64,000 nucleotides of DNA from positions 1,602,262 to 1,666,261 of the forward strand of contig CAWCIU010000018.1 in NCBI GenBank assembly GCA_963795735.1, in the 5' to 3' direction. How positions within the stretch are numbered: position 1 is the stretch's first letter; every line of letters starts with the position of its first letter. Shown here piece after piece: positions 1,941-44,233 of the stretch. Source of the stretch: an uncultured Acidobacteriota bacterium (lineage in GTDB: Bacteria > Acidobacteriota > Thermoanaerobaculia > Multivoradales > UBA5704). A program made the position numbers and the translations under genes. The notes under the pieces were generated by a model. That model was given only the letters and a program-made list of their open reading frames with translations, was not told the origin of the DNA and ran no database searches.

Positions 1941-2097
1941 GCCGAGTCCTAACCTTCTCCACTATATAGAATCCAGCCCATGCTGCAATCCCGTCTGCGA
2001 CAGCCACCATAACAGCCTGTAGAACCCGACTAGAATTGCCTGGGATTGTGCCAATGCTTTAAGCGTAACGCCGATCTCGAAGCGAAGGTCCGAATTC

Positions 2098-2811
2098 TCA
2101 AGGCAAGGGAGTTCCGAGGACGTCGGCAAGGTACAGATAAGGACCGTGGTAATCCCGCCGGACCTCGCCGTACCAATGCGCGGCGGGTCGCTTCTCGCAC
2201 AGGAAGGCTCGTTGCTCTGGTGGCAAGCTCTTCAGTTGCACCCGGAATCGGCCATCACGGGCTCTGGCGGCGACAATAGTTCCGCTGGCTGAGCTCGAGC
2301 GCGCTCGACAAGAGCTCGGATGAAGAGAGCCAAAGATTGTCACTTTGGTCCCCAAGTATAAATCTTCATGCACTTTTACATACCACGGGTCGGTGAAGTC
2401 GTACCGGATGAATCGCCGCTCGTCCGTACAGGACCCCAGCCGACCCAGGAATGCGATCCGCTCGCGCAGCTTCCTGATGACGCAGTCACGGACGGCGGCG
2501 ACGTTCTGGCAGTTGTTCCGATCCCGGAGCCAGAACCGCTCCTCCGCACGAAATTCGGTCTGGGCCGCGCCAGAGCAGCTCAGATGTTTCCATTCTGTGT
2601 TGAGCTTATAGTCCAGCCGCCCCACCTCGGCATCGGCGCACACCAGGCCTTCGACCACTCCCTCTCCGCATCCAGGACGCCAAGGGATTTCCCTGTCGGT
2701 TACGGTGGTGCTCGCGCCGGACCCGCCGCCGTCTTGCGGCTTGGCGGTCGGAACGGCGACCAGGGCGGCGACGAGAGCCATCACGGCTATGGGAAGGAAT
2801 CGTTTCATCAT
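2098..2811 (-). CDS. Secreted DUF1311 (LprI lysozyme-inhibitor-like) domain protein, 237 aa.
   Basis: This is an internal start of track ORF 2098-3054. MMKRFLPIAVMALVAALVAVPTA is a signal peptide, preceded by a GAGGAGG Shine-Dalgarno. The DUF1311-like pattern is C..A...LD..LN..W....C.....FRAEERFWLRDRNNC. Confidence 0.55.
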   Translation of the reverse strand: MMKRFLPIAVMALVAALVAVPTAKPQDGGGSGASTTVTDREIPWRPGCGEGVVEGLVCADAEVGRLDYKLNTEWKHLSCSGAAQTEFRAEERFWLRDRNNCQNVAAVRDCVIRKLRERIAFLGRLGSCTDERRFIRYDFTDPWYVKVHEDLYLGTKVTIFGSLHPSSCRARSSSASGTIVAARARDGRFRVQLKSLPPEQRAFLCEKRPAAHWYGEVRRDYHGPYLYLADVLGTPLP

Positions 2812-3005
2812 GGCCTCCTCGGCGGGAAATCGCCTTTCATGGGAGCCATCATGACGTTCATAGAAGGAGAGAGTGTGAACGGGAAGTGAGCTGCCCGGAG
2901 GAAGCGGGAGATCCATGCACGAAGCACAACGCGGCCTGCGAGGGCGGGAGCAATATCCATTCGTATGGCACCTCGTTCGGCAGTCCTCTGTATTGGAGCT
3001 GCTGC

Positions 3006-3293
3006 TTAAGGTTCTGACGCAGATAGATACTCGGCATGCTTCCTGACAGCCCAATCCTTATATTCTTCGTAGCTAATCCAACCCCATAGTCGATCTTCGC
3101 TCGAGGGATTCAAATCCGTCCAATCAAGTTTCTCCTGTAGCTGACCAAAGAACTCGTAGTCGCTGTCAGACATTGCATCCTCGGGAATGCTTTCCAAATA
3201 GAAAGTGTAATATTGGGCATGGAACTGCGCGACAGACAAACCACCTGATACGAGATCGTCTATCATCTTCATCAAAGCGTCTCTATAATCCAT
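3006..3293 (-). CDS. Small acidic cytoplasmic protein (95 aa), possibly an orphan immunity protein.
   Basis: The ORF track gives MDYRDALMKMIDDLVSGGLSVAQFHAQYYTFYLESIPEDAMSDSDYEFFGQLQEKLDWTDLNP... It lies in a low-GC islet downstream of the Rhs CT/immunity array. It has no signal peptide and a very acidic composition, which is typical of immunity proteins. This is an inference. Confidence 0.45.
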   Translation of the reverse strand: MDYRDALMKMIDDLVSGGLSVAQFHAQYYTFYLESIPEDAMSDSDYEFFGQLQEKLDWTDLNPSSEDRLWGWISYEEYKDWAVRKHAEYLSASEP

Positions 3294-3548
3294 ATAGTCT
3301 CACTTTAAAGGAATAAGGCCTCCAGATTTATCCGCATTCTATTCCCGAAGTAATGAGCGTTCTTTCGAACTTCCCAGTCCGACGTATAATAGTGGACACC
3401 CCGATCACACCCCAAGAGGGGAAGAATAGAAATAAGGATGAGAGACATCCATGTCCTACTAAGACGTCCCAAAAGCCATCTCACTTGGCCACGAAATCGT
3501 GACGATGGTGCCCTTCTTCAGATTCCGGCAGATGAGACGGCGGCCATG

Positions 3549-4013
3549 TCAAATGCCCTCTCCAAGATAGGGAAACGCAAACCAGAACAGCCATGTTGCT
3601 AAGGTGAGTGCCAGCCAGAGTACCCTCCGAAGTGGAAGTGGCCACGGTGAAGCCCACCATTGCCACCAGAAATAGCCAAGAACGAGAACGTTCACACTAA
3701 TCATTGTAACTACATGCAAAGGACCCTGGAAAGTCAAACCTCTCGAACAATCAACCGTGAAATAAACCGCGCTCAGAGCAGTAATGGCGCCCAGAAACAA
3801 CCCTAAGCAAGCTCTTCCTATACGCGGACGACTGATCACAACTCCTACAAGTACAAGAGAGGCCAACGCCGCCACCACACATGTCCATTGTGGCCAGCCA
3901 CTCGAACGCAGGAAAAACTGCGTCATAGGATATGGCGACCATAGAGTTGGAACTCTGGCCGAAACTGCCAGCAGTGACGTTACAAAGAGCACGCCCATAC
4001 TGATAACCATGGG
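3549..4013 (-). CDS. Small polytopic membrane protein with 4-5 TM segments; start uncertain.
   Basis: Track ORF 3549-4091. The hydrophobic segments include VISMGVLFVTSLLAVSA, CVVAALASLVLVGVVI, ACLGLFLGAITALSAVYF, VVTMISVNVLVLGYFWWQWW and VLWLALTLATWLFWFAF. The start is probably an internal Met (MVISMG...). It is low-GC. Confidence 0.35.
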   Translation of the reverse strand, partial: PMVISMGVLFVTSLLAVSARVPTLWSPYPMTQFFLRSSGWPQWTCVVAALASLVLVGVVISRPRIGRACLGLFLGAITALSAVYFTVDCSRGLTFQGPLHVVTMISVNVLVLGYFWWQWWASPWPLPLRRVLWLALTLATWLFWFAFPYLGEGI

Positions 4014-4094
4014 CAAGGCTGTGGTGCTAGGTGAACCTTCGACAGGATTATGATTCTTGTTATAAGTCGTTATGGGGGTGGCACCACTCACCTG

Positions 4095-4517
4095 TCACTT
4101 CGTTCCAGCTCCGAGGTCGAGGCTGGAATGGTTTTGGTCCCTCTCCTGCGAGAGCAGACGATGGTTCCGTTTTACCCCGGCAACTTTCACGGATTGAGAC
4201 TCCTCATCCCAATACAGATACCTACAGTTTTTTTTACACCAACTTTTTACCTGCATAAAATCATACGCCGTATATTCATTTGGCAACAGCCCGAACGTAC
4301 TGGTATTCCCCCGTATTTCCAGGCCGGTGACTTTTCCAAAGAAGATAACCGCCCGCAAGTATTCGTCAGAATCAGACCGACCTTCTTTAACGGCATTATC
4401 GATTATTCTCTCATTTCGCCTCCACTCTGAAAATGCTTTATCATGGGATCTACTTGCGCTACAAGCCGCTATGGCAAGCGCGACAGCAAAGAGTGCGGAA
4501 AATTTCTTTAACAACAT
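4095..4517 (-). CDS. Lipoprotein (140 aa), the predicted immunity protein for the orphan Rhs C-terminal toxin. It is a paralog of the protein encoded at 5601-5993.
   Basis: MLLKKFSALFAVALAIAACSAS contains a lipobox. It shares motifs with the 5601-5993 product (TG.EIRGN.S.FG.L.N..TA.DF..V..W....R.YWDE.S.SVKV). It lies immediately downstream of the orphan CT (4531-5493), 14 nt away. Confidence 0.6.
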   Translation of the reverse strand: MLLKKFSALFAVALAIAACSASRSHDKAFSEWRRNERIIDNAVKEGRSDSDEYLRAVIFFGKVTGLEIRGNTSTFGLLPNEYTAYDFMQVKSWCKKNCRYLYWDEESQSVKVAGVKRNHRLLSQERDQNHSSLDLGAGTK

Positions 4518-4530
4518 GGGCGACTCCTTC

Positions 4531-5493
4531 CTATTGCCGCATTATCCTTACGATGTTCCCATTATTCCAGAATATCGTCACCGTGACCGTCTGGCTTCCC
4601 CTTGCGTGTGGCGTAACCGTAGTTCCGGTTCCGTTCACCAGATTACGTTGCGTTGGCCCCCTTTGAAATCCCGAGACGGCAGATTGGGCCCCACAAGCGA
4701 TTGCATGCGCAACGGCAAACTGCCGCCCTAAATCCACGTTTATGTTTACAAGTCCCATAGTTTGTTTAACCGTCTGCTCTGCAACTTCATGCGCAAGCAA
4801 CGAAAAACTGCTTGCCACAGGCCCCTTGCCCGCCGCGGCCAGATCTTGAGTATCAATCTTCTGAGCATCATAGCTTCCGACCAAAACGCCGGAATCTCCC
4901 GTCACGAGCCCAATTGCGATTGTCTGCTTACTACCAATTGCCTGCCCAAGAATACCCGCAAACGCTTCTTGCTCCGGAGTAGCACGACCTGCTTCTCCTG
5001 TCGCAACCAGACTTGCCTTCCCGGAATCATCGATTACAAGACGTACACCATGGAGCCCCTGATTAGCTATCTTCTCAATTTCCCTGAACTGTTGAGGGCT
5101 GCCGGTAAAAACAAGGATTTCTCCACTCGGATCAATGTCAACAGATGGTGAGTTCCGAACGTAGGAATATCTATTCCAGGATTGCGGCGAGCTAGGGTCA
5201 AAGCTCATTCCTGCTGGATCCACACTCAAAAACCGCCCCGTCACCGGGCTCTCATGCCGGGCATGCATGTAATCCAGATCATCCCCCGCTCCGGCCGGGC
5301 TTGCCAGGTCTCTTTCGTGCCCGGTGAACTTCATCCGTTCGGTGTCCTGGTTGAAGGCGGTGGCTTCTTCTCCGAAGGGGTAGTAGACGTGGTAGGCGAC
5401 GCGGTCTCCCGAGGCTCTTGTGATCAGGCGCAGGGTTCCCAGGTGGTCGAGGCGGAAGTGACGCTGGCCGGTCTGCGTCTCGGCGCACGACAA
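4531..5493 (-). CDS. Orphan Rhs C-terminal cassette: the RHS repeat-associated core tail (…DPSGE) plus a variable toxin domain, with no Rhs body and no credible start codon.
   Basis: Residues 5-125 (ETQTGQRHFRLDHLGT...YHVYYPFGEEATAFNQDTERMKFTGHERDLASPAGAGDDLDYMHARHESPVTGRFLSVDP...NRYSYVRNSPSVDIDPSGE) are nearly identical to Rhs residues 1524-1644. The CT domain (about 4531-5118) is a diverged homolog of the main Rhs CT, and both carry LAHEVAEQ. Nucleotide identity of about 93% to 6665-6955 ends abruptly at about 5486. Confidence 0.7.
   Translation of the reverse strand: MSCAETQTGQRHFRLDHLGTLRLITRASGDRVAYHVYYPFGEEATAFNQDTERMKFTGHERDLASPAGAGDDLDYMHARHESPVTGRFLSVDPAGMSFDPSSPQSWNRYSYVRNSPSVDIDPSGEILVFTGSPQQFREIEKIANQGLHGVRLVIDDSGKASLVATGEAGRATPEQEAFAGILGQAIGSKQTIAIGLVTGDSGVLVGSYDAQKIDTQDLAAAGKGPVASSFSLLAHEVAEQTVKQTMGLVNINVDLGRQFAVAHAIACGAQSAVSGFQRGPTQRNLVNGTGTTVTPHARGSQTVTVTIFWNNGNIVRIMRQ
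5200..5486. repeat. Direct repeat, about 93% nucleotide identity to 6665-6955, which is the DNA encoding the conserved RHS core.
   Basis: Manual alignment of 5218-5486 against 6680-6952 gave this identity. It is reflected in the near-identical shadow ORFs 5182-5589 and 6575-9106 on the plus strand (both read ...HTQKPPRH.ALMP.MHVIQI...). The similarity falls away toward the CT-encoding side. Confidence 0.7.
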
Positions 5494-5600
5494 TTTTACC
5501 GCAATCCGAGGCTTTTCAGCTGCCTGTTAGATCCTTTCGTCTATGGCCTGTACCTTATCACCTCTTGTTGTCCGGCTCTCACACCTTAACGTTCTCTGCA

Positions 5601-5993
5601 CTACCCTCTATCGCGAACCTTCACCGATTTAGACGCCTCATCCCAGTACAATCGATCGTGATTGACAGAGTACCATGCTTGTACCTTCTTAAAATCAACT
5701 GCGGTTTCTCTATTGGCCAGCCAGCCGAAGAAACTTCCATTGCCCCTAATTTCAATACCAGTTGTTTTTTCAAAAAACTTACACGCCCGACCGAATTCCT
5801 CGACAGAATAGCCTCGACCATTAAGAGCATTGGTCACGATTTTTTCGTTCTTGCGCCAGATTTCGTCAACGTTTACTGCGGGAGTTCTCTCATGCTGGAG
5901 AGAAGGATCCGAACGATTATTGGCTTTATCGCAACCGGGCAGCAAGAACAATCCGCCAACCAAGGTAACCTTAAAAAAACAACTAATTCTCAT
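5601..5993 (-). CDS. Lipoprotein (about 130 aa), the predicted cognate immunity protein of the Rhs toxin.
   Basis: This is the internal start MRISCFFKVTLVGGLFLLPGCDK of track ORF 5601-6029, with a lipobox. Its ATG overlaps the Rhs TGA stop (ATGA), indicating translational coupling. It is paralogous to the 4095-4517 product. Confidence 0.6.
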   Translation of the reverse strand: MRISCFFKVTLVGGLFLLPGCDKANNRSDPSLQHERTPAVNVDEIWRKNEKIVTNALNGRGYSVEEFGRACKFFEKTTGIEIRGNGSFFGWLANRETAVDFKKVQAWYSVNHDRLYWDEASKSVKVRDRG

Positions 5994-8900
5994 TGGCGAA
6001 GCACTCCCGTCAAGTTTCCGTTCTGCCAAAACGTGATCACTACGATCGTATGACCGCCTTGCTCCTGTCGCGTTACAATGACTCCATTCAAGGGTCCACT
6101 TGGCGGCAAACCATTGTGGGAAGCTCCTCGATGATAGCCGGAAACTGCACTTTGAGCCGCATTTCCATAGCTATGTGCCCTGTCAAAGTCACTCCTGGTA
6201 TTAGCCAAGTGATTAAATTGCTTGAAGCTCTGCTCTGCCACCTCATGAGCTAACACAGATTGGCTACTCAATCCTGGACCTGGATTTATAGCAGTAAGAT
6301 CCTTGACATCGAGTTTGCCAGATCTATATTCGCCAAATAAGACTCCCCTATCGCCATCAACAAGCTGGATCCCAACCGTGCGCGTGTCGTTGATAGCGTG
6401 TTCCAAAACGGACTTAAGCGCAGCTTGCGCCGGAGTAGCAGCACCACCCTCTCCAGTCGTCTGCAGAGTGGCCTTACCCGAGGCATCGATCACAAGCCTG
6501 ACGCCATGGAGTCCAGAATTTGCAATGCTTTCTAGCTGACGATATTCGGCCTCTGTACCCGTAAAAACAAGCACTTGGCCAGTGGGGTCAACAGAATTCA
6601 GCGAACGATTTTGTACATACGAGTAGCGGTTGATAGATTGTGGAGACTTCGAATCGAAACTCTCTTTTGCTGTGTCCACACTCAAAAACCGCCCCGTCAC
6701 TGGGCTCTCATGCCGAGCATGCATGTAATCCAGATCGTCCCCCGCCCCTGCCGGGCTGGCAAGATCTCTCTCATGCCCGGTGAACTTCATCCGCTCGGTG
6801 TCCTGGTTGAAGGCGGTGGCTTCTTCTCCGAAGGGGTAATAGACGTGATAGGCGACGCGGTCTCCCGAGCCCCGGGTGATCAGGCGCGGGGTTCCCAGGT
6901 GGTCGAGGTGGAAGTGGCGCTGGCCGGTCTGCGTCTCGGCGGCGAGGAGAAGGCCGTCGCGGTAGAGGTAGTCCGTGCCTACGCTCCAGGTGCCGGCGTT
7001 GTTCAGGTAGTCCCGGAGAACCTTGCCGCCGAGATCCCGCACGGTCCAGTGGGAGAGGTTCCGCGCCGTGTCGTAGGACCAGATCCGCTCGTCATCAGCG
7101 GTGTAGAGATAGGCCCAGTTCTCGGCGCCGGAGACCATCTGGGTCATCTGGTTGAAATGGTCGTAGGTGTAGGACGCGCCGTTCCAGTTGGTCAGGTTGC
7201 CCGCGGCGTCGTAGACCGCGGCTCCGCTCAGGCGGTTCGTCTGCGAGCTGGTGGGCGTCGCGCGACCGCTGGTGCCGCCGATGCTCTGGAGGTTGCCGAA
7301 GGCGTCGAAGGCGTAGCTCTGCTGTTTCTGGTTGCCCGCTCCCGTAGGACCGTCGAAGAGGGTGGACGAGACCAGGCGGCTCACCGCGTCGTAGGTGAAC
7401 CAGGAGGTGCCGATCGCCTTGACGTTGCCCGCACCGTCGTAGGAATAGCTGCCCGAGTTCCAGCTCGCCCAGGGACCCGAGGCGGCGAGCGAGGAGGGGC
7501 GGCGCATCTCGTTCGGATCGTTGCCCTGGGTTTCGGTCACGCCGTTGCCGTGCGCGATCTGGCTCACCAGCAGGTTCGGATAATAAGCGATCGTCCCGTA
7601 GGTCGTCGCGCCGCTGGCGACGCCGGTCAGCAATCCTTGCGTGTAGGCGAGTTGGACGCTGCGCGCGGTATTCGGATCGGTGGCGACCGGGATGTCGAAG
7701 GTCCGGGCGAGATAGCCCGCCATCTGCGCCCGGGTGAGCGGATTTCCAGGACAGAAGTTCCCGCCGCCGCAACCGGTCATGATTCCCCGCCGCGAGACCT
7801 CGGCGATCTGCGCCGCGTCCCAGTAGGCGCAGTTGACGTCCAGGAAAGGTCCGGCGCCGGTGCAGGCCGGCGGCACGTAGCTCGTGCCCTCCTTGCTGCG
7901 CAGCAGGAAGGCCGCCATCTCCGCGTTGATCACCTGGTTGTCCGGGCAATAGCGCAGCGGGTTGGCGGCGCAGCCGGTGGTGATCCCCCGCCGGTAGATC
8001 TCTTCGATCCAGGCCGCGGCCCATTGAGTGCAGGGCACGTCGGCGAAAATGGGCGCCTGGCAGTTCGGCGCCGGCGGCGTGTAGCCGGGAGCGGAGGATG
8101 CGCGGATCAGAAACGCCGCCATTTCGGACCGAGTAATCGTGTTGTCCGGGCAGAAGCGCAACGGATTGGTGTTGCAGCCGGTAGTGACTCCAGCCGCGTA
8201 GATACCCTCGATCTCGCGCTGCGCCCAGTAGCCGACCGGCGCGTCCGCGAAGACGGCCGGCGCCGGCTGGGTGCAGCCCGCGTGGGTGCAGCGCGGGTAA
8301 TCCAGATTGCTCACCAATCCCAGGTCGTTATAGGTGAAGCCTTGAGTGAACGACTCCCCCGGCACGGTATCGGTCGTCGCCTGCGTGTCACGTTGGGAAA
8401 CCCGGCCGTCCCGGCCACCATAGGTGTAAGTCTCGGTGATCTGAACGGTGTGCGCTGCTCCGCTGAGCGCCACGTAGTTGTAGCGGCTCGCCTGCCGCAG
8501 CTTGCCCTGGCTCCAGTCGTTGGAGCCGTTGGCGCTGGCGTAGGTGAACGCCTTGAGGAGCCGGCTGGAGCCGCCTGTCTCCTGGACCTGGAAGAGCCGC
8601 TCGGCCGGGTCATAGCTGAACGTCAGATCGTTCGGACCATCGACTTTCCGCAGAGCGTGCCCGTGAGAATCGTAGCGCGGATAGCTCACCGCTCCATTCC
8701 CGGACGCTCCCTTCTCCGGATGGGTCTCCGACTGGAGCAGGCCCGCCCGGTCGTAGCTGAAGTTGCGCGTCTGGGTAACGGAAGCGGCGGTCGTCGAGAC
8801 GGAGGCGAGCCGGTTGCCCACGTCGTAGCCGTAGAAGGTGGTCACGTTCGCCCCGCCACTGCCGGAGGGCTCGGCGACCGAGGCGAGCCGGCCGTGGCGG

Positions 8901-11506
8901 TCATAGATCTCGGTCGCGGTCGCCGAGGTCTCGGACCCTTGAGCGGTCGCGATCTTCACGGTGCGGTCCACCTGCCGGACGCCGCGATAGGTCATGGCGA
9001 CGTCGTGCGCCGCGCCGTCCGGCGGCCGGATCGTTCCCGGGCGGCCGAACGCGTCGTAATTGAGAAACGTGGTCTGGTTCGAGGGCGAGCCGGCCGTCCA
9101 CTCTGAGACGGTGCTCTTGTTGCCCGCGATGTCGTAGGCCGTCTGGCGCTTCGCCGAAGTACCGTTCGGGAGAGTCTTGAACTCCTGGTAGACCCGGCCG
9201 AAAGCGTCGAAGACGATCTGGTGCACGGCGAGGATCGGCGCGGTCACGCTGCCGTTGGCCCGTTGCCGCACGATCGCGTTGGCCTGCACGCTCCCGCCGG
9301 CCGGCGTATAGACATATTCCGTCCAGCCGCCCTGGGGCGGCTTCGACCAGAGCAGCCGGCCCAGGGCGTCGTACTCGTAGTTGGTCGTCAGACCTGCGGT
9401 GTCGGCGCTCGACGAGGGCAGGCCGGTGGTCGAATCGATCCCCTGGTTGAGGACGAAGAAGTTGATCCCCGCGTACTTCGAGGTCGCCCGTACGCCGAAG
9501 GAGTAGCCATGATCGATCTCGTATTCCGGATTGGCCGGCAGGGCCACCGTGCAGAGATTGCCGGCGCCGATCCCACCCTGGGCGTCGCCGCCGTAAGACT
9601 TCTCGTTCATGACGTTTCCCGTATTCTCAAGGACGTAGACCGAGACGAGGTCCTGCGCCCCTTGTGCCGCTCCGTCCAGGCGGTGGACCCGCTTGCGCGT
9701 CACCGTCGTCGAGCCCGGCGCGTAGCAGAGCTCTGTCTGGGCCGTGGCCGCACCCTCCGAATCCGACACCGAAACCGGGGCCTCGAGCACCCAGGCCGAG
9801 CTCGACGGGAAGAGCGAGTAACCCGAGCCGGTGTTGCCCGCCGCGTTCACCGTGTACGTGCCCTGGCCGGGATTGTAATTCCCGAAATGGGTGCGGACGT
9901 TCGAGCCCGGGAAGCTTCCTTCGGTCTGCTGCGTGCGGTAGTGCCCCAGGCCGTCGAAGCCGGAGCTCACCGCGCCGCTGAAGTTGCCGCCGTCGTCGTT
10001 GTAGACCGTACGGCTGCGCAAGGGCCGGCGGTTGAGGTTGTAGATGTCCGGCGGCGAGACCGCATAGACGGGATCCCGCTCGTAGAGCACGTACTCCGAG
10101 CGCAGCAGCGCCGCCGAGGGCGAGGGGCCGTCGTAGACCTGCCGTGAGAGGTTGAGGTCCACGCCGGGAGCCACGTTCAAGGTCGTGTTGCGCGTGAACG
10201 GCAGGCTGTAGTCGTAGGTGCTCCACCCGGTGTAGCTGAGATCGATGGCGGTCGAGAAGTAGCTCACTGTCCGGTTGCCGAGCGGATCGATCACTGTCGT
10301 GGAGTGCTCGCGGCTGGTCAGGGCGTCGGGAAATCCCGGAGCGGACGTGTAGGTCCAGATTCCCAGCACGGTGCCGTTCGGATTGCGCATCGTCCGCGTC
10401 GCCACGCCGGGGTTGGTCTGCAGGTGCTTCTTGGTCGTCGAGCCCGTCGGGAAATAAACCTTTTGCCAGGTCCATTCCATCCGCCCCAGGGTCGGCAGGT
10501 TCCACGCCGTGATCTCGCCCGCGTTCTCCGTGCAGGCGTTGTCGGGCCAGCTCGGTCCCGAAGGCAAGGTGATCACATAATCGCTCGCCGTGTTCGACCA
10601 GGAGGAGCCGTCCGGCAGGCTGACGCTCGTCAGCAGCGGCACCGATACCATGCTCCCCACGCTATTCTTCTGATCCGTGTCGTTGTGCGGGCAGGCCCGG
10701 CCGATCGTCTGCACGGCATAGTTGAACTGATAGGTCGCCTTGGCGCCGGCGAAGGCCGTGAGCTCGATGCGATCCACCACCTGACCGTAGGGAGAAAGAT
10801 CGGTGCGAAAGAAGATGCGCTGCTGCCGGCCGTGAACGTCGGACAGAATCCACTGATTCGCCGTCGTTATGGAATCGATCGTCAGGCGGTTGCCGAACGG
10901 GTCCTGGATGCTCGTCGGCATGCCGTCGGCGCCGAAGGAGCGCGTCGAGCCGTCCGGAAACTCCACCAACCAGCCTCCCGACACCAGGACCTTCAGCCGC
11001 AGGTAGCTGCCGTCCCGCGTGTACTGGATGTCCGAGACCCCGGAGACCGGCGCGTCCTCGGCATCGCCGGGGTGGAGCGTCGGATAGAAGACGTGGTCGG
11101 TGCCGTTCTCGTCCTGATAGACCGGCCCCAGCGGGTAGGTGTCGTTGGCGTCGGGCACCTGGCAGGGTGGGTTCATCCGGCCCAGCGACACCCGCCAGCC
11201 CAGACCCGCGTTCGAGCATGGCGTCGGGTAGGCCTGCGTGCGGGAGAGATCGTTGGCGGGGTCCAACGGATTCGGATACTTGACCGTCTTGAACAGCCAG
11301 GGGTTCGAGTTGTAGACCAGCTTCAGGCCGTAGGAGAAGCCGCCGTTGACCGGATAGGAGCCGCCGATCGGGATGGTCAGCGTCAGGCCGTTGTTGAACA
11401 GGTTGACGCTGTCGATGTCTCCGACGTGGAAGGACTGCTCGACCGGAAACCCCGGCGCCGTGTTCGGATGGACGTCCGCCATGGCCGGAGCGGCCATGGC
11501 GCCCAC
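5990..11506 (-). CDS. Rhs/YD-repeat polymorphic toxin (1838 aa) with three internal SLH domains and a C-terminal variable toxin domain.
   Basis: Many YD repeats are present (YDALGRL, FDAFGRV, YDIAGN, NYDAFGR, YDRHGRL, YGYDVGNRL, FSYDRAGLL, YDSHGHAL, YSYDGAGN, TYDAVSRL, FDAFGNL, YDAAGN, YTYDHFNQ). The RHS core runs about 6575-6937 (HLDHLGTPRLITRGSGDRVAYHVYYPFGEE...DPTGQ). The CT toxin runs 5990-6574. The start is ambiguous: GTG at 11506 in the track, but a signal-peptide-like segment (SSRKILAAILLVGAMAAPAMA) is encoded in-frame upstream with no start codon. Confidence 0.9.
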   Translation of the reverse strand: MGAMAAPAMADVHPNTAPGFPVEQSFHVGDIDSVNLFNNGLTLTIPIGGSYPVNGGFSYGLKLVYNSNPWLFKTVKYPNPLDPANDLSRTQAYPTPCSNAGLGWRVSLGRMNPPCQVPDANDTYPLGPVYQDENGTDHVFYPTLHPGDAEDAPVSGVSDIQYTRDGSYLRLKVLVSGGWLVEFPDGSTRSFGADGMPTSIQDPFGNRLTIDSITTANQWILSDVHGRQQRIFFRTDLSPYGQVVDRIELTAFAGAKATYQFNYAVQTIGRACPHNDTDQKNSVGSMVSVPLLTSVSLPDGSSWSNTASDYVITLPSGPSWPDNACTENAGEITAWNLPTLGRMEWTWQKVYFPTGSTTKKHLQTNPGVATRTMRNPNGTVLGIWTYTSAPGFPDALTSREHSTTVIDPLGNRTVSYFSTAIDLSYTGWSTYDYSLPFTRNTTLNVAPGVDLNLSRQVYDGPSPSAALLRSEYVLYERDPVYAVSPPDIYNLNRRPLRSRTVYNDDGGNFSGAVSSGFDGLGHYRTQQTEGSFPGSNVRTHFGNYNPGQGTYTVNAAGNTGSGYSLFPSSSAWVLEAPVSVSDSEGAATAQTELCYAPGSTTVTRKRVHRLDGAAQGAQDLVSVYVLENTGNVMNEKSYGGDAQGGIGAGNLCTVALPANPEYEIDHGYSFGVRATSKYAGINFFVLNQGIDSTTGLPSSSADTAGLTTNYEYDALGRLLWSKPPQGGWTEYVYTPAGGSVQANAIVRQRANGSVTAPILAVHQIVFDAFGRVYQEFKTLPNGTSAKRQTAYDIAGNKSTVSEWTAGSPSNQTTFLNYDAFGRPGTIRPPDGAAHDVAMTYRGVRQVDRTVKIATAQGSETSATATEIYDRHGRLASVAEPSGSGGANVTTFYGYDVGNRLASVSTTAASVTQTRNFSYDRAGLLQSETHPEKGASGNGAVSYPRYDSHGHALRKVDGPNDLTFSYDPAERLFQVQETGGSSRLLKAFTYASANGSNDWSQGKLRQASRYNYVALSGAAHTVQITETYTYGGRDGRVSQRDTQATTDTVPGESFTQGFTYNDLGLVSNLDYPRCTHAGCTQPAPAVFADAPVGYWAQREIEGIYAAGVTTGCNTNPLRFCPDNTITRSEMAAFLIRASSAPGYTPPAPNCQAPIFADVPCTQWAAAWIEEIYRRGITTGCAANPLRYCPDNQVINAEMAAFLLRSKEGTSYVPPACTGAGPFLDVNCAYWDAAQIAEVSRRGIMTGCGGGNFCPGNPLTRAQMAGYLARTFDIPVATDPNTARSVQLAYTQGLLTGVASGATTYGTIAYYPNLLVSQIAHGNGVTETQGNDPNEMRRPSSLAASGPWASWNSGSYSYDGAGNVKAIGTSWFTYDAVSRLVSSTLFDGPTGAGNQKQQSYAFDAFGNLQSIGGTSGRATPTSSQTNRLSGAAVYDAAGNLTNWNGASYTYDHFNQMTQMVSGAENWAYLYTADDERIWSYDTARNLSHWTVRDLGGKVLRDYLNNAGTWSVGTDYLYRDGLLLAAETQTGQRHFHLDHLGTPRLITRGSGDRVAYHVYYPFGEEATAFNQDTERMKFTGHERDLASPAGAGDDLDYMHARHESPVTGRFLSVDTAKESFDSKSPQSINRYSYVQNRSLNSVDPTGQVLVFTGTEAEYRQLESIANSGLHGVRLVIDASGKATLQTTGEGGAATPAQAALKSVLEHAINDTRTVGIQLVDGDRGVLFGEYRSGKLDVKDLTAINPGPGLSSQSVLAHEVAEQSFKQFNHLANTRSDFDRAHSYGNAAQSAVSGYHRGASHNGLPPSGPLNGVIVTRQEQGGHTIVVITFWQNGNLTGVLRQ
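7697..8254 (-). other. Three tandem S-layer-homology (SLH)-like domains embedded in the Rhs protein at about residues 1085-1270.
   Basis: Each repeat shows FADAPVGYWAQREIEGIYAAGVTTGC...FCPDNTITRSEMAAFLIRA, then FADVPCTQWAAAWIEEIYRRGITTGC...YCPDNQVINAEMAAFLLRS, then FLDVNCAYWDAAQIAEVSRRGIMTGC...FCPGNPLTRAQMAGYLARTFDIP. These match the SLH consensus (F.DV...W....I..L...GI..G....F.P...ITRAE.A..L). Each repeat also carries extra Cys pairs. Confidence 0.6.
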
Positions 11507-12216
11507 CAGCAGGATCGCAGCGAGGATCTTGCGCGAGCTGATTGCGCCACCCCGCCCTTGTGCACCGAGATCTCCATGGTCAGCGGATCGACGACGAACC
11601 AGAGGTCGTTCCCCTTGAGCTTGGCCGGCGCGGCCGGGCTCCCCGGGAGCGGATCGAATTTGTCCAGCGCGAAGCGCAGGTGACCGTCGTTCTTGCCGTC
11701 CTCGTCCCGCGGGCCGCCGTCGCCGCCGGCGAAAGCCCAGGCACCCTCCTTGGGGCGCACCATCAGACCCATGAGATAGGGACGCTCGTCGAGGATCTCG
11801 TCAGACTTCGACCCCTCCCCCAGTCCCAGGTGCGAGGGCTTCTGCGGCTTCGCCAGCCGGTAGCCGTTCGGCGCCGCCACCACGAAATCGCCGCCGTCGA
11901 GGTCCACCGCCACCCAGAAGGAGCGCGGCGTCACGGCATGGCCGAGATCGAGGCGCGCCGTGCCATCCGCGGCGACCGTCCCGGTCTCGTAGCGCTGCGC
12001 CATCTCCCCTGAGTACTCGGCGTCGATCCGGTGCTCGACCCCGAACCAGACCACCCGATCCCCCGGCGTCAGGCCGCTCGCCACCAGTGCCGAATCCTCG
12101 AAGGCAACCTGCGGCGCCGGCTTGGCGGGTTTGCCAGGACTCCCCTGGGCAAAAGCTACGCCCGCGACGAGCAGGCCCAGCAGGAGCGTCAAAGACAGCG
12201 AACGGTCTCTTCTCAT
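11383..12216 (-). CDS. Secreted hypothetical protein. Its 3' end is uncertain and overlaps the Rhs 5' region in another frame.
   Basis: MRRDRSLSLTLLLGLLVAGVAFAQGSP is a signal peptide. The mature part is charged and Gly-rich (…PKEGAWAFAGGDGGPRDEDGKNDGHLRF…). The last 50 or so residues (ARARSSLRSCWWAPWP...) look like out-of-frame read-through of the Rhs N-terminus. Confidence 0.45.
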   Translation of the reverse strand: MRRDRSLSLTLLLGLLVAGVAFAQGSPGKPAKPAPQVAFEDSALVASGLTPGDRVVWFGVEHRIDAEYSGEMAQRYETGTVAADGTARLDLGHAVTPRSFWVAVDLDGGDFVVAAPNGYRLAKPQKPSHLGLGEGSKSDEILDERPYLMGLMVRPKEGAWAFAGGDGGPRDEDGKNDGHLRFALDKFDPLPGSPAAPAKLKGNDLWFVVDPLTMEISVHKGGVAQSARARSSLRSCWWAPWPLRPWRTSIRTRRRGFRSSSPSTSETSTASTCSTTA

Positions 12217-12507: not shown

Positions 12508-12936
12508 TCAAACCACCACAAGGTGCTCTGGAGTAGCTCCTGGGGCTGCCGACAGCGGGATGGAGTGATCGAAGGCGACGAGCCTTCCCCGATGCTCCAC
12601 GGCAAGCGCCAGAAGATAGACGTCGGTCACCTGGCGCGGCCCGTGGACATGGCTGGAGTTGATTCGGCGGTCATCGAGAAAGCTGGTGGAACAGGGCCAG
12701 AATTCGTGGTGCTCGGTGCTGGTCGCCCGGCGCAGCCGCTCGACAGCCTCGAAAGGCGAAACGGGACTTGGGTACTTGGGCTGGCTGATAATGCGGACGA
12801 ACCCGTTTTGAGTCAGAGCGCAGGATGCCCAGCCATGCTGGATTTCCCCTGAGATCCACTCTTGGGCTCGTCGATGGTCGACGTGATCGGCATCCAGCAG
12901 CGCGAGGAGCACGCTGATGTCGAGGAGCGCTCGCAT
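12508..12936 (-). CDS. vapC: Type II toxin VapC (PIN-domain ribonuclease).
   Basis: MRALLDISVLLALLDADHVDHRRAQEW... is a PIN N-terminal motif. The protein is 142 aa. Its ATG overlaps the stop of the upstream antitoxin gene (ATGA). Confidence 0.8.
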   Translation of the reverse strand: MRALLDISVLLALLDADHVDHRRAQEWISGEIQHGWASCALTQNGFVRIISQPKYPSPVSPFEAVERLRRATSTEHHEFWPCSTSFLDDRRINSSHVHGPRQVTDVYLLALAVEHRGRLVAFDHSIPLSAAPGATPEHLVVV

Positions 12937-13439: not shown

Positions 13440-14171
13440 TCAGCCGTCTGCTGCAGGGGTCTCGTTAGCCGCTTCTAGGTCGCTCACGAGGCCATAGCCC
13501 CACTGCCTCCCCACCAACTCATGCTCGGCACGGCATTTCTCGCATGTGAACCGTGTGCCGATCTTAAGCTTCCGGTTCTCTAACAGAGTTTCATGTTCAC
13601 ACTTCATGCAACGGAAGTTAGAAGCGATTAGGCGAAATAAAATCTTACCCTCTTCGCTTTCAATGGCATAAAATTCTGCACCGCAAGACGGATTCAGATA
13701 CACAGCCTTATGACTCTTCTGTACTCCCTCTAGGTTCGCCGCTACGGGTTCGCCACACACGGAACATTGAAACTCAACCAAGCTTGCGAGTGAGCTATCA
13801 ATGCGACTCGCTACCACAGGTTCTAATTCCGCTACAACGCTATCAAGGTACTTCCGAAGTTCCTTTGGATCTCGTTGAAGCGGCGAAGACTCGGCCGGAG
13901 GCGACAGTACGTGAAGAAGGTTCCCAATTTTATTGTAACGCTTCCGAAGCCAAGACACCTTGAGACCTTTATGGTTACCTAAGCTCATCCACTTTCCCGT
14001 AGGTACTCCTGGCTCGGATTCAAACGCCACCATCATCTGGAAGTCTTGATCTGCTCCAGGCTCAAGCTCAAGGAGGGCTTTAACCGCTTGCGGAGGCTGC
14101 CAGATGGCAAGAACGCCCTTAGGCAGTCGCTTAGCATAGGTCTCCAGTTTCTGGTAAGTTACCGCCTCCAT
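13440..14171 (-). CDS. Hypothetical protein with two C-terminal zinc-ribbon-like motifs; the first gene found at the 3' end of the low-GC cassette.
   Basis: Probable start MEAVTYQKLETYAKRLPKG. The motifs are CSVCG-x20-C(GAEF) and CMKCEH-x16-CEKC. No family was recognised. The gene is low-GC. Confidence 0.5.
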   Translation of the reverse strand: MEAVTYQKLETYAKRLPKGVLAIWQPPQAVKALLELEPGADQDFQMMVAFESEPGVPTGKWMSLGNHKGLKVSWLRKRYNKIGNLLHVLSPPAESSPLQRDPKELRKYLDSVVAELEPVVASRIDSSLASLVEFQCSVCGEPVAANLEGVQKSHKAVYLNPSCGAEFYAIESEEGKILFRLIASNFRCMKCEHETLLENRKLKIGTRFTCEKCRAEHELVGRQWGYGLVSDLEAANETPAADG

Positions 14172-14372
14172 GCAAAATCGAAGTTCTAGGCAGACATAGC
14201 GCAAGACGGAATCGCTCCTCTTTCTAGGAGTTCCTTTGCGCGCTTAAGGCAACTTCTCTTATCGAAGCTCATTCAGAAGTCTCTCCTCGAGCATCTACGG
14301 CAGCAACGTTCTAGGCCTCCGCTGCGGACTATAGGGTTGGGTGCGCCGCCACATTTGCGAGGACCAGGGATT

Positions 14373-15527
14373 TCAGCGGTCAACTCGGATCCATGCTATA
14401 GGATGTTCTGAATCGGCTGAAGCATATGCTCCCTTTTTGACTATCCGTTCAACTTTCCCACTGACTGGCGCTTGTATATTGCATCCCTTCCGTAAGTTCT
14501 CCAGGAAAGCAAGCCACTGCTCCAATACACTACCGGAGAATGATCTTTCCTCTTTTCTACGATTCCAATCCGCTACTGCCAGAAGTTTTCTTTCTTTGGC
14601 GATCTTGGCCTCAGTTTCAGCCTCTTCAACAGAATCTGGAGGTACTACTCCTGCCTCCTTGAGCCTCTGATATCGGGATAAATGCTGATCGGCTCGCAAA
14701 GCCTGCAAACTCTCCACTGACTTCGCGCTCTCCGGGCTAACATCGCTTGCTCCTGGAACTTGCAAATGACGCAACTCGCCACGGGTCCTCAGAATCTCAC
14801 GATCCAGTGCCTCGCAATCCTGCTGTACAATAACCTGTCCTTGCTTGATCTGAGCGCCCTGTTTCCATGTCTCTAAAACCGTACCCCCATAGCGTGCAAA
14901 GACAGGGTACAAATCGTTACTAAGTGGGGGATAGGGAGGATTTGGAGGAGTCGGAGTAGTAATGGATGTTGATTCTGAACGGGCAACCCAGAGGACTTGG
15001 AGTCGGTCGAGAGAATTGTTCACCTGCTCCCAGCGTCGAATTTCATCCTTGCTGACACGAGTCAATGAGACCAAGGACGTACTTACCGAGAACACAGCAC
15101 CAGCGAGAAGACCCGCCCCGACAATCGGCGCGAACAGCCTAACTGCGAATTCCACTGGCGCGCCAGATCCTTTTGAGTGCTCAAGTGTGCCAAAAATCTT
15201 CTCTGCTACATTTTCAAAAAATTTTCGCTCTGGGTCTAGACCACCCAGAACATTCGTGATTACAAAGGCTAATCCCCAGACGAAGCCAATCATAATGAGG
15301 ACAGCCATACTAAAATGGGCAACGTTATAGAGGATTGCAAAGGGACCATCATCTCCGGCGAGAACTCCAAGCAGATACCTGCGAAGGCCCTGCGAGCGAG
15401 CAACTTCTTTATCCATACCTCTCGCCCATTGATGATACACCTCGAAAAAAAGGAGCCCGAAGCAGCCAACAACAACGAGGGTGATCGAACCACGCAAGCT
15501 GGACCAAAACATAGATGACTTCATCAT
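14373..15527 (-). CDS. Membrane protein with 3-4 N-terminal TM segments plus a coiled coil and a split lipoyl-like (HlyD/membrane-fusion-like) domain.
   Basis: TM segments are ITLVVVGCFGLLFFEVY, FSMAVLIMIGFVWGLAFVITNVLGG and LFAPIVGAGLLAGAVFSVSTSLVSL. The C-terminal half has YGGTVLETWKQGAQIKQGQVIVQQD, then a coiled coil, then IQAPVSGKVERIVKKGAYASADSEHPIAWI. This is the barrel-sandwich hybrid signature of HlyD-type adaptors. The gene is low-GC. Confidence 0.5.
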   Translation of the reverse strand: MMKSSMFWSSLRGSITLVVVGCFGLLFFEVYHQWARGMDKEVARSQGLRRYLLGVLAGDDGPFAILYNVAHFSMAVLIMIGFVWGLAFVITNVLGGLDPERKFFENVAEKIFGTLEHSKGSGAPVEFAVRLFAPIVGAGLLAGAVFSVSTSLVSLTRVSKDEIRRWEQVNNSLDRLQVLWVARSESTSITTPTPPNPPYPPLSNDLYPVFARYGGTVLETWKQGAQIKQGQVIVQQDCEALDREILRTRGELRHLQVPGASDVSPESAKSVESLQALRADQHLSRYQRLKEAGVVPPDSVEEAETEAKIAKERKLLAVADWNRRKEERSFSGSVLEQWLAFLENLRKGCNIQAPVSGKVERIVKKGAYASADSEHPIAWIRVDR

Positions 15528-15747
15528 CTTCTCCTTGAATTACTCCTGGACAAGTGCATAAGTAAGAAGTTGAAAGATAAAGCCGAAAAATTTGACCTGC
15601 CCAACGGGAGTGTGGCTGAGTGGCGGCGCCAGCCGTCCGCTCGAGCCTCCGGCCGCACTGGTTCTCCATGCATGCGATTGAAGCGCGATAAATGATTGTC
15701 GTCTTGATGCGAGTCCATTTCAATGGTTGCCCATGCGCAGCATATCA

Positions 15748-16344
15748 CTACTTACCAATAATCATCTTCACTATCATCGCCACGAACGAGATGCAATACG
15801 TGAAAGTGTTTAAATAATTTGGCCGCTCAGGAGTAAGCTTCAAACGTATCCATTCGGCAAGACGTAGAGGTGAGAGAGCTAATGCCATCCCGATTAGAAA
15901 TAGAAGGACCACAAGATACCCAAGCAACACGATGGGCCAAATAATGAAAAGAAGGAAAGCATCGCGAGAGCGAAAATCCTGCTCGAACCAATTGAATGGC
16001 CATGGCGGAAGGCGATGCGGGAAATCTTCTCTCCACCAGCGGCAAAATTTTCTGCCAACGCGCTGGGTCGGCAAGTATTGCAGTCTAAGCAGCGGCACAA
16101 TAAAAACGAGGCTAAGGAGGGTACCTGCTTCTCCAAGAGCGCGCAAGAAAAGGGATAATGATAGAAACATTACGATCAAACTTGTAAAAGTTAGGGTGAT
16201 TAACGCCAATACCTTCGAAGCCTTCCAAGTGGCCGCCCCTACTCTCAATAGCCATTCTTCTATTTTTCGGGCACGCTTCTCCCCTATAATCGTACTGATT
16301 CCGAAGATGGGGCCCAGCGTAAGGAGAACGTCCAGGATAGCCAT
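15748..16344 (-). CDS. Polytopic membrane protein (198 aa, about 5 TM segments) of unknown function; the first gene of the low-GC cassette in transcription order.
   Basis: The track gives MAILDVLLTLGPIFGISTIIGEKRARKIEEWLL…, followed by four more hydrophobic helices. An AT-rich putative promoter region lies at 16345-16500. Confidence 0.5.
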   Translation of the reverse strand: MAILDVLLTLGPIFGISTIIGEKRARKIEEWLLRVGAATWKASKVLALITLTFTSLIVMFLSLSLFLRALGEAGTLLSLVFIVPLLRLQYLPTQRVGRKFCRWWREDFPHRLPPWPFNWFEQDFRSRDAFLLFIIWPIVLLGYLVVLLFLIGMALALSPLRLAEWIRLKLTPERPNYLNTFTYCISFVAMIVKMIIGK

Positions 16345-29451: not shown

Positions 29452-32400
29452 ATGCCGACCCGACGTCCGTCCGTCCTGGGCCGCGGCCTCTGGGGGCTGG
29501 CGGTCAGCCTCCTCGTCCTGCTGCTCGGCGCGGCGGCGCCGGTCCCGGTCACTCAACCCGAGGAGGTCGTGCCGCTCGGGGAATCCCGCGAGCGGCCGAT
29601 CGCCGCTGGAGAGACGCAGGCCTGGCGGGTCGTGGTGCCCCCGGACACGTCCGTGCTGGTGACGGTCGAGCAGCACAGCATCGATCTCGTGGTAGAGGCT
29701 CGGCGGCCCGGAGGCAAGGAACCGCTGGCGGTCACCGCGAGCCGGGATAGTTGGGCCACCGAGGTCCTGCTGCTCGACAGCGCGGGAGAAACCCGGATCG
29801 AAGTCCGGTCACGAGAGAAGGGCGTGTGGCCCGGCCGTTACACCCTTCACGTCGAAGCCTTGCCGGAGCGAACGGGGGCGAGGCGTGACGCCCTGGCCTT
29901 GATGAGCCGGGCCGGCCGCGAGACCTTGCCGGATACCCCGGATTCCCGGCGACAGGCCGAAGCTACCTATCGCGAGGCCCTGGCGGCGTGGCGCTCGCTC
30001 GGCGACCGCGCCTGGGAGGCGGAGGCTCTCACCTCGCTCGCGATCCTGGAGGATGAAGCGAGCGAGCTCTTAGCCTCGACCGCGGACTTTCTGGCAGTGC
30101 TGCCGATCTGGAGGGAGCTGCAACAAGCTTCAGCGCGAGGCCAACACCTTCGCTTGGCTGGCCTCCATCTACTCCAACACGCAAGGAGCAAAAAAGGCCC
30201 GCGAGGCGTTGGAAACCTCTCGCTCCCAATGGCGCGCCCTCGGGGAGCCCTTCGAGGAGGCGCAGGTCCATAGCAATCTGTGCAATCTAGAGCTCAAGAG
30301 TGGGAATCTGCCGGCAGCCCTCGCCTGCAATCAGGAAACCTTCGAGTTTTTTCATCAAAATAAAGTCGCCACAATGGAGGCTGAGATCCTCAACCGTATG
30401 GGTGGCGTCTATGACCTCCAGGGTGAACCCGACGACGCGTTGAAAACCTATCGGCAAGTCCTCGCCTTGTGGCAAGCCCTCGGCGACCGCAAAAAAGAGG
30501 CGGCCACCCTCAACAATATGGCGGTGGTCTATCGTCTCCTGGGAGATTGGCAGGAGGCCTTGCGCCTCTATGCGCAGGCGCGGGAGATTCTGAAAACCCT
30601 CGACGACCCGAAGACCGAAGCCTCCGTGCTCAACAACGTCGGATTCCTTTACAACGGTACTGGACAGCCGGGGCAGGCTCTGAAGTTCCTGACAGAGGCT
30701 CTCGAGTTGCGCAAGAAGGCGGAAGACCGCGCGGGGGAGATCACGACGCTGAACAATCTCGGCGCCGCTTGGCGCAAGCTGGGGAACCTTGAGAAGGCGC
30801 TCGACCGGCACCAGCAAGCCCTCGCCGTAGCCCAGGACCAAGGCGACGATCCGCAAAAGGCGACGACTCTGGTGCAGATGGCCGAGGTCCACCTGGAAGG
30901 TCGCGATCCTGCCGCGGCACTCCGCGATCTGGATGCGGCCCTCTTGGCACTGGGAAAAAGGGTGAACCGCACCGAAATGGACGCTCGCCATTTGCAAGGG
31001 CGAGCCCTGGCGATGGCAGGCCGGGCTGAGGAGGCCCTGCCGTTACTGCAAGAGAATCTGAGAAGACGGCGAAGCCTGCGCGACCGGATGGCCGAAGCCG
31101 AAGCGCTCCACGATCTGGCCCTGGCGGAGCGGTCTCTCGGTCATCCCGCGAAAGCGATCTCCGATGCGAAAGAGGCCGTCAATCGCCTCGAGGAGCTGCG
31201 GACCGGCTTTGTCAGCGCGGATCTGCGAGCATCCTTCCTGGCCACACGGCGGAGGTCCTTCTCGCTACTGATCGATCTGTTGATGGATCAGGACGCCACC
31301 GAGCCCGGAAAAGACCACGACCGGGAAGCTTTCGCGATCAGCGAACGCGCCCGCGCCCGCGCCCGCAGCCTGCTCGACGTTCTTCGCGCCGGGACCGTCG
31401 GCCACAACGCCGGCGCCGCTCCTCCCGGATTGTTGACGCAACGAAGCTCCCTTCTCCGCCGCGTGAGCGCCAAGGTCAACCAGCGGTTGAAACAGAGTGG
31501 CAAGCAGGCGGAGGCCCTGGATAACGAGGTCGCTGACCTCCGGGCCGAGCTCGACTTGGTTGAAGCGAAGATCCGCCAGCTCGATCCGAGCTTCGCCGTC
31601 TCAAGCGCGCCACAACTCGTCACTCCGCAAGACATCTCCGGCTGGCTCGAGCCCGGAACGGTTCTCCTCGAGTACTCCCTTGGGGAGGAGAGGAGCTTCC
31701 TCTGGGCGATCGAGCCCGGACAGGTTCGTTCTTTCATCCTGCCCAGCCAGGAGAAGATCGAAACCCTGACGAGCCGGGTCTACACGGAGATGAGCACCGT
31801 CGAGGCCGGGAGCGCGCCTCGGCGTTCGGCGGAGGACTTGAGCCGAATTCTGCTCGGCCCGATCTGGAGCGGTGGCAGCCCGGCGGCGCCGATCCACCGG
31901 CTGATCGTGGTGCCCGATGGAGCGCTCGCCATCGTTCCCTTCGCCGCTCTGCCGGTCCCCGATCCGGGCAAGACCTGGCAGGCTCCTGGATCTCTGCTGC
32001 CTCTGGTCGAACGCCTGGAGGTGGTCTCCCTTCCTTCCGCCACCACCCTCGCCGCGCAAAGGCAACGCCCCCGCGTCCAAGCCCCCAAGCTGGCGGCGAT
32101 CTTCGCCGATCCGGTGTTTTCCGCCGGCGACGAGCGCCTGGCTCTTCATGTCTCCACTCATCCCGCGAGGCCCGGGAGGTCGCCCGGTAAGAAACCGGAC
32201 GTGGAAGCGGCGTTGCGAGGCGGGGACACCCGCGGTCTGCCGCTGACGCTCGAATCCCTGCCCGCGACCCGCAAGGAGGCGGAGGCCGTGGCCGCCCTGG
32301 CGCCCGGCCAGGTGACGCTCCATCTCGGCCTGGCCGCCACCCGCGAAGCCGCGCTCGCCGCCGATCTCCGCGACTACCGCATCCTCCATTTCGCGACCCA

Positions 32401-44207: not shown

Positions 44208-44233
44208 GAAGTTTCCTCCCTCGACCTCGAACG

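Follow-up and report, generated by a model that had tools for sequence, protein, structure and literature searches.

An SLH triplet embedded in the shell of an acidobacterial Rhs toxin as a candidate tethering or targeting module

Rhs toxins are central weapons of bacterial competition, and we know of no account of how diderm bacteria retain and deliver Rhs proteins that are exported by Sec. WapA from the monoderm Bacillus subtilis carries an anchor of the CWB2 type, which is N-terminal and not embedded, and has no conserved upstream partner of 220 residues. Here, we describe an Rhs/YD-repeat polymorphic toxin with three tandem S-layer homology (SLH) modules inside its β-hairpin shell. It is encoded by an uncultured member of the Acidobacteriota (Thermoanaerobaculia; Multivoradales; UBA5704) within a stretch of 64,000 nucleotides (assembly GCA_963795735.1, contig CAWCIU010000018.1, positions 1,602,262 to 1,666,261 of the forward strand), which was analyzed as a whole and is referred to as the window in the following. 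Feature coordinates are window positions, with the strand in brackets. A first reading of the window, made from its letters alone (the original prediction), had pointed to these modules.

The described SLH trimers closest to this triplet are those of Sap from Bacillus anthracis (PDB 3PYW/6BT4) and SpaA from Paenibacillus alvei (PDB 6CWC/7SV3). With them, the Rhs triplet shares three modules of about 55 residues, a predicted spindle and motifs of the Trp13/GIIxG/TRAE type. As in SpaA, its second module has no arginine at the critical position, which would leave two candidate binding grooves, and a CsaB-like enzyme and an epimerase supplying N-acetylmannosamine (ManNAc) are present in its lineage. 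Unlike these trimers, it resides inside a β-sheet capsule rather than at a terminus, belongs to a diderm acidobacterial host, and has a cysteine pair flanking the loop after Gly29 in its modules as well as two linker cysteine pairs. Its identity to the solved trimers is only 15–23%, and its ligand is a prediction. The Cys-SLH triplets of exoproteins from Chloroflexota and Thermoanaerobaculia (annotated as ‘S-layer homology domain-containing protein’) are 40–57% identical and show the same G-C...C-P pattern, but they are located C-terminally, after PKD, TIG, GSDH or peptidase domains, and have Arg43, Gly29 and Trp13 in all three modules.

Among Rhs proteins, WapA is likewise a Sec-dependent toxin with a three-repeat wall-polymer anchor and a downstream immunity gene, a likeness that is probably one of function. 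A comparison of CWB2 with SLH is available (PMC6081394). Rhs toxins with RicinB, discoidin or bulb lectin domains among their repeats (PMC3482391) also have a carbohydrate-binding domain inside the repeat region; here, by contrast, the inserted domain is SLH, and neither SLH nor S-layers are mentioned in that paper. The type VI secretion system (T6SS) effectors RhsA, Tse5, Tse15 and Rhs1 and the TcB/TcC proteins also have a YD capsule fold and an Rhs core, and differ in that PAAR, VgrG, prePAAR or TcA are absent here, while the homologs of our protein have a Sec signal peptide and paired cysteines. Literature searches on SLH in combination with Rhs, YD or polymorphic toxins yielded no paper that describes the architecture, in line with the original prediction, which had not recognized it as a described family, and nothing relevant on Thermoanaerobaculia and S-layers. 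The proteins themselves are present in public databases with SLH annotation (P0011, for instance, as ‘S-layer homology domain-containing protein’). The combination is therefore known to databases and undescribed in the literature we found, each of its component families being known. With a well-understood ligand-binding module on a Rhs capsule, whose contact residues can be read from the sequence, the question of toxin adhesion becomes a direct binding experiment.

The SLH triplet and its place in the Rhs shell

By every sequence and fold criterion tested, the protein encoded at 5990–11506 (-), 1838 residues long as listed, belongs to both the Rhs and the SLH families. The RHS_repeat family is detected with Pfam (PF05593, 4e-18), and the Rhs-associated core domain with NCBIfam (TIGR03696, 47 bits against a cutoff of 32.5) at residues 1556–1644 (6575–6841 (-)), ending in ...NSVDPTGQ; the N-terminal 469 residues yield no Pfam or PDB-sequence match. 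Residues about 1084–1278 (7673–8257 (-)) form three tandem SLH modules, located between β-hairpin YD segments of the shell and upstream of the core. The original prediction had placed them in the same setting at residues 1085–1270, and comparison with homologs lacking the insert confirms this assignment with slightly wider bounds. Against the Pfam SLH model (PF00395, cutoff 20.8), the whole protein scores 38.3 bits and residues 1085–1270 score 49 bits in two stretches. When the modules are scanned singly, module 3 reaches 31.9 bits and module 1, with 18.2 bits (E 0.0024), remains below the cutoff; module 2 is not detected. The pairwise identities among the three modules, 52%, 44% and 36%, with z of 10–19 against shuffled controls, identify them as repeats of each other. 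Furthermore, when a family profile made from 110 related triplets is run against PDB sequences, it matches the SLH regions of Sap (5e-18), SbsB (7e-13) and OmpM (2e-6), and also of Deinococcus SlpA.

Each module displays the characteristic motifs. Module 1 (residues 1086–1140; 8087–8251 (-)) has W1094, GVTTG with G1110, the pair C1111–C1119 and TRSE with R1126. Module 2 (residues 1154–1208; 7883–8047 (-)) has W1162, GITTG with G1178, C1179–C1187 and INAE, with N1194 in the place of Arg43, and is associated with the linker cysteine pair 1149/1159. Module 3 (residues 1221–1272; 7691–7846 (-)) has W1229, GIMTG with G1245, C1246–C1252 and TRAQ with R1259, together with the linker pair 1215/1226. 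The two cysteines per module (G-C...C-P), which had already been noticed in the original prediction, are invariant or near-invariant, and each of the ten cysteines of the insert is kept in 25–26 of the 26 aligned Rhs triplets. The two linker pairs are invariant in all 26, compared with only about 10% of free-standing triplets. The whole protein has 18 cysteines, an even number in apparent pairs.

AlphaFold (AF2) predicts the triplet with very high confidence, at a predicted local distance difference test (pLDDT) of 96.6 and a predicted template-modelling score (pTM) of 0.90, and the model contains six helices. A Foldseek search against the PDB returns the SLH trimers of Sap and SpaA (3PYW, 6CWC and 7SV3; probability 1.0, TM 0.74–0.84) as the sole significant structural matches. 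Accordingly, the three modules are predicted to form a pseudo-threefold ‘three-pronged spindle’ of three-helix bundles. A model of 1196 residues (470–1665; pLDDT 82.7) consists of continuous β-hairpins, with the six-helix SLH unit as the sole interruption. This larger model matches the shells of Rhs proteins, TcB/TcC and teneurins (E 1e-29 to 1e-21 for Rhs effectors and TcB/TcC), and the insert within it again matches 3PYW (TMt 0.83). On these models, the triplet is a cassette that comprises an entire domain unit and was inserted where a loop connects two YD hairpins.

The closest relatives of the protein are Rhs proteins from metagenome-assembled genomes of Thermoanaerobaculia and Holophagales (Acidobacteriota), which fall into two length classes of about 1820–1860 and about 1600–1670 residues. 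In an alignment of 56 sequences, the difference is localized to one clean indel at one loop of the shell: 26 proteins, including that of the window, have 197–215 residues there, one has a remnant, and 29 run directly across the site, for instance as ...CTQTPAP-RTVQNTYTQGLL... (CTQTPAP-RTVQNTY). The internal placement is thus shared by 25 homologs, in favor of the architecture described in the original prediction. It had named a mis-assembled chimera as the alternative. That the SLH stretch arose as an assembly chimera or by chance resemblance seems to us barely conceivable, because the same insert is found at the same site in independent assemblies from NCBI, ENA, JGI and Logan, and because the HMM, profile and fold matches are significant; the chimera in particular is rejected on the strength of the 25 independent homologs. 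No evidence in support of such an artefact was found; the GC content does vary over the first 16 kb of the window.

In a crude neighbor-joining distance tree of the shell, from which the columns of the insert were left out, clades without SLH branch inside clades that have it. One homolog (P0037, on a contig of 3.48 Mb) retains at the insertion site no more than ~25 residues from the start of module 1, a stub that a secondary deletion has left behind; an SLH-plus copy (P0051) is encoded on this contig as well. The simplest history suggested by these sequences is one old gain followed by several losses. Both the nested losses and the 25-residue stub would be in keeping with a passenger that is merely tolerated and has little or no function, an accident of domain shuffling, or with a locus that is decaying into a pseudogene. 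We nevertheless consider this improbable, as 26 sequences, with shell identities as low as 43%, keep the cassette of about 190 residues in frame and at full length, with its ten cysteines conserved.

As to the origin of the cassette, a search with the triplet alone yields hundreds of proteins with 40–57% identity over its full length, and 2,822 clusters are recovered at E<=1e-30 when the search is exhaustive. In almost every one of the 150 best-scoring relatives, the triplet occupies the extreme C-terminus, where it follows PKD, TIG, Big, peptidase or dehydrogenase (GSDH) domains. Named relatives come from Anaerolineales, Dehalococcoidia and Thermoanaerobaculia, and all share the signature G-C...(F/Y)-C-P. 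These C-terminal Cys-SLH triplets of exoproteins are the probable source of the cassette, and the Rhs-embedded triplet, internal at residues 1084–1278 of 1838 and thus unlike the typical terminal placement of SLH domains, is an uncommon case of this widespread C-terminal anchor being placed internally.

Binding grooves and a candidate glycan

In SpaA, a binding groove is composed of Arg43 (TRAE) from one module, Gly29 (GIIxG) from the next and Trp13 from the third; module 2 has TVEE without the arginine, and groove G3 is non-functional (PMC6081394). We assigned the groove residues of the 26 Rhs triplets according to this scheme. In the window copy, the motifs TRSE/INAE/TRAQ parallel TRAE/TVEE/TRAQ of SpaA, the Gly29 motifs are GVTTG/GITTG/GIMTG, and the tryptophan is found in all three modules. 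Modules 1 and 3 therefore have W, G and R, and module 2 has W and G, but N for R, such that grooves G1 and G2 are complete and G3 is without its arginine, the same pattern as in SpaA.

Across the 26 triplets, Arg43 and Gly29 of grooves G1 and G2 are invariant (26/26 in each case), and Trp13 is W or F in 20/26 in G2 and W in 9/26 in G1. In G3, Arg43 is present in 2/26, Gly29 in 20/26 and Trp13, as W, in 5/26. Free-standing triplets, for comparison, keep all three grooves at 73–99%. The residues of G3 come from three modules and meet in one groove, and their joint decay argues that the SpaA-type geometry applies here and that selection for binding acts on one groove or more. Although the loss of one groove might also be expected of a passenger without function, the degeneration is specific to this groove and not random, the triplet model is very confident, and both other Arg43 positions and two of the three Gly29 positions are invariant.

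In Paenibacillus and Bacillus, the SLH ligand is made by CsaB together with a ManNAc-supplying epimerase (PMC10435577; PMC11464976). A related contig (L082) encodes, within 20 kb, an Rhs-SLH gene 69% identical to that of the window (P0004), together with the matching partner and immunity genes, five proteins that have a complete Cys-SLH triplet at the C-terminus (among them a GSDH dehydrogenase), a UDP-GlcNAc (uridine diphosphate N-acetylglucosamine) 2-epimerase of the WecB/MnaA type (437 bits), and a fusion of PS_pyruv_trans and glycosyltransferase domains of 934 residues, whose N-terminus has TIGR03609 (CsaB) as its best match (5.8e-17, with 106 residues available). The distance from P0004 to the pyruvyl transferase, the epimerase and the five triplet proteins is no more than 15 kb. 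This CsaB/MnaA pair beside an Rhs-SLH gene speaks for a pyruvylated ligand within the lineage, though not in this genome specifically. C-terminal SLH triplets on exoenzymes are found in the same lineage, and anchoring of SLH domains to pyruvylated glycans, best known from Firmicutes and other Terrabacteria, is thereby indicated for many exoproteins of soil Acidobacteriota. We also note that positions 1–20926 of L082 constitute an ‘SLH island’, which includes a reprolysin-like peptidase, and that similar clusters of SLH proteins are seen on two other contigs (L083 and L071).

Export, tethering and target recognition

The homologs start with a cleavable Sec signal peptide, with AxA before the cleavage site and DVHPNT after it. 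In the window, its coding remnant lies at 11477–11542 (-) and reads (M>I)SSRKILAAILLVGAMAAPAMA, followed after the cleavage site by DVHPN. The ancestral start of the Rhs gene is 36 nucleotides upstream of the listed open reading frame (ORF), at 11540–11542, where ATG has become ATC. Compared with five related loci, this is due to a single G>C change at position 11540, which converts the junction at 11539–11542 (-) from CAATGAGC to CAATCAGC and abolishes both the TGA stop codon of the upstream gene and the Rhs start codon ATG that overlaps it. The codons of the signal peptide are still in frame, and no in-frame ATG, GTG or TTG occurs between 11800 and 11506. The window copy may thus be poorly expressed or produced without its signal peptide, or an error in the sequence may be responsible. 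The altered start codon and the lost upstream stop could likewise be taken as signs of a pseudogene; a sister copy (P0241, >90% identical) has an intact signal peptide, which speaks against such a decay of the system.

The upstream gene (11383–12216 (-)) encodes a signal-peptide protein of ~225 residues, extended here by 52 codons through the mutated stop. It is 60% identical to the gene upstream of the homolog P0008, and a counterpart of ~220 residues lies directly upstream of, and overlaps, the Rhs gene in >65 of 77 related loci, with or without SLH (e.g. L001, 2768–3424). This secreted protein has no Pfam or PDB-sequence match and is probably an obligate partner of the Rhs protein.

Two known modes of delivery were considered and rejected. 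The protein is not a T6SS-delivered Rhs effector, as no PAAR, prePAAR, VgrG or T6SS genes, nor anything TcA-like, are found among the Pfam matches in the protein or the window, and the homologs have cleavable Sec signal peptides. Neither is it a WapA homolog: it has no CWB2 match, its anchor is an internal SLH triplet, and outer-membrane protein genes nearby identify the host lineage as diderm.

We lean, with some caution, toward a role of the SLH trimer in tethering the toxin capsule to a pyruvylated glycan of the envelope, based on the sequence comparisons, the models and the analogy to described SLH proteins. The capsule would be exported by Sec, whereupon disulfides would form and stabilize the trimer. 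Projecting outward from the capsule surface, the trimer could then bind a negatively charged envelope glycan, most likely a pyruvylated, ManNAc-containing one made with enzymes of the CsaB and MnaA types, through grooves G1 and G2, which keep the Arg43/Gly29/Trp13 triad. In this way, the loaded capsule might be kept on the envelope of its producer until delivery, similar to what the CWB2 anchor does for WapA.

Several points weigh against such a tether. The genes for a pyruvylated polymer, for which the original prediction had proposed to look, are represented by the pair on L082, but the 64-kb window itself (~45 ORFs, Pfam) has no csaB or other pyruvyl transferase and no obvious wall-polymer genes, the 77 related loci of the genome collection have no csaB, and a search seeded with a CsaB fragment yielded six short fragments, none of them from the window's contig of 1.98 Mb. 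Within the Rhs clade, Trp13 shows little conservation in the first two modules, the repeated loss of the insert marks it as dispensable, and the Rhs copy in the window is without a canonical start codon. The outward orientation of the triplet is an assumption of this reading. In a diderm host, moreover, the ‘cell surface’ could be either a periplasmic polymer linked to peptidoglycan or a glycan on the outer surface, and we know of no route across the outer membrane in this lineage.

Recognition of a target fits about as well as WapA-like retention on the producer, because shells that are almost the same carry different alleles of the cassette, and because the cassette was lost more than once. 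Compared with the closest gene (P0002 on contig L080), nucleotide identity is 0.90–0.97 in most of the shell, drops to 0.68–0.70 across residues 1069–1248, and is 0.3–0.4 in the toxin region; the cassette as such is 68% identical, compared with about 92% for its flanks. The sister gene (P0241 on contig L081) shares both SLH allele and toxin with the window gene. In all SLH-plus proteins, the amino acid identity of the SLH region to that of the window protein is 50–63%, while that of the shell spans 47–91%. Going by these identities, the cassette seems to behave as a semi-independent module that diverges fast or is exchanged, as a receptor-binding part would. Other patches of low identity (0.71–0.84) are seen against both L080 and L081 at Rhs residues 169–348 and 949–1008 (window about 10463–11002 and 8483–8662), which hints at a mosaic gene that varies in further patches of the surface.

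The trimer could hence be a receptor-binding module that reads the envelope glycan of the victim and sets the target range, a second polymorphic module beside the toxin. A precedent for this is CdiA, which has an exchangeable receptor-binding domain in the middle of the protein, and for lectin domains among RHS repeats, enhancement of target-cell contact has been proposed (Zhang et al. 2012; PMC3482391). The drop in nucleotide identity across the cassette, the roughly constant amino acid identity of the SLH region (near 55–60%) whatever the divergence of the shell, and the pattern of presence, absence and remnant in the tree all agree with this, as do the linker cysteine pairs, whose invariance in Rhs proteins suggests a specialized sub-type. 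Conversely, the contact arginines and glycines do not vary, and the alleles may hence all have one specificity; a peptidoglycan-linked polymer in a diderm target would be hidden beneath the outer membrane; and triplets of this kind are used by exoproteins of the lineage itself, an indication of a self ligand. On balance, receptor binding appears possible to us, if rather unlikely on its own, and it merges with tethering where the victims are kin with the same polymer. The proposal of a cell-surface-tethered, WapA-like effector in the original prediction is thus borne out in part: the checks suggested there all turned out in its favor, SLH identity and internal placement hold, and retention on the producer would be one of two roles that fit them.

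More speculatively still, Thermoanaerobaculia may possess a Sec-dependent Rhs delivery system, composed of the 220-residue partner, the capsule and an immunity gene, in which the embedded SLH trimer acts as an exchangeable targeting module that reads a pyruvylated glycan and, as a second polymorphic determinant, helps to choose which neighbors are hit. If this were true, it would place CsaB/SLH wall-anchoring in a diderm phylum outside the Terrabacteria. The natural variants with and without the insert and the divergent alleles of the cassette offer a ready comparison for the effect of the anchor on target range.

Toxin, immunity genes and neighboring features

Most homologs align with the window protein over 89% of its length and then diverge, with different Pfam toxin domains, including nuclease-type toxins on other family members. 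In the window, the variable C-terminal toxin domain (residues 1645–1838; 5990–6574 (-)) differs from that of the closest shell homolog and has no Pfam or PDB-sequence match. It is followed by a putative immunity gene (5601–5993 (-)), whose ATG overlaps the Rhs stop codon (CAATGA). The N-terminus of its product, MRISCFFKVTLVGGLFLLPGC, is lipoprotein- or signal-anchor-like, and the protein is 33% identical to the product encoded downstream of P0008. Farther downstream lie an orphan C-terminal Rhs fragment, consisting of a core and a related toxin (4531–5493 (-); phmmer 5.9e-124 to Rhs residues 1520–1838), and an orphan immunity gene with the lipobox AIAAC (4095–4517 (-)), which by eye resembles the gene at 5601–5993. 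The immunity proteins, too, have no match in Pfam or among PDB sequences. In position and homology, this arrangement of an adjacent immunity gene and orphan toxin/immunity modules looks typical of a displaced array of polymorphic toxins.

The lipoprotein-like, extracytoplasmic character of the immunity proteins implies that the toxin of the window would act in the envelope. An association of SLH with envelope-acting toxins is not evident from the start of the downstream gene, which is hydrophobic or has a lipobox in 7/10 SLH-plus and ~20/45 SLH-minus loci, a crude and approximate count in which two SLH-plus loci are mislabelled in the source table. Likewise, the same toxin type of 195 residues is found on both SLH-plus and SLH-minus shells. 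A second Rhs-SLH copy on the contig of the window protein (1,979,381 bp), and thus in the same genome (P0242; >90% identical, called from an internal methionine) has a different toxin with the motif HELTHVLQ, which by eye resembles a zincin of the DUF4157 type.

The GC content is 0.50–0.54 at 2001–6000 and 14001–16000, compared with ~0.70 elsewhere in the window. These low-GC stretches house the toxin/immunity modules and several ORFs without an assigned family, which is consistent with horizontally acquired cassettes. Upstream of the partner gene, an ORF of 142 residues at 12508–12936 (-), starting with MRALLDISVLLALLDADHVDH..., is PIN/VapC-toxin-like by eye. Finally, the window encodes a TPR-CHAT protein at 30209–32824 (+) (CHAT, 9e-70) and two adjacent Sortilin/BNR-repeat proteins at 42237–46252 (-), each without an evident link to the Rhs gene.

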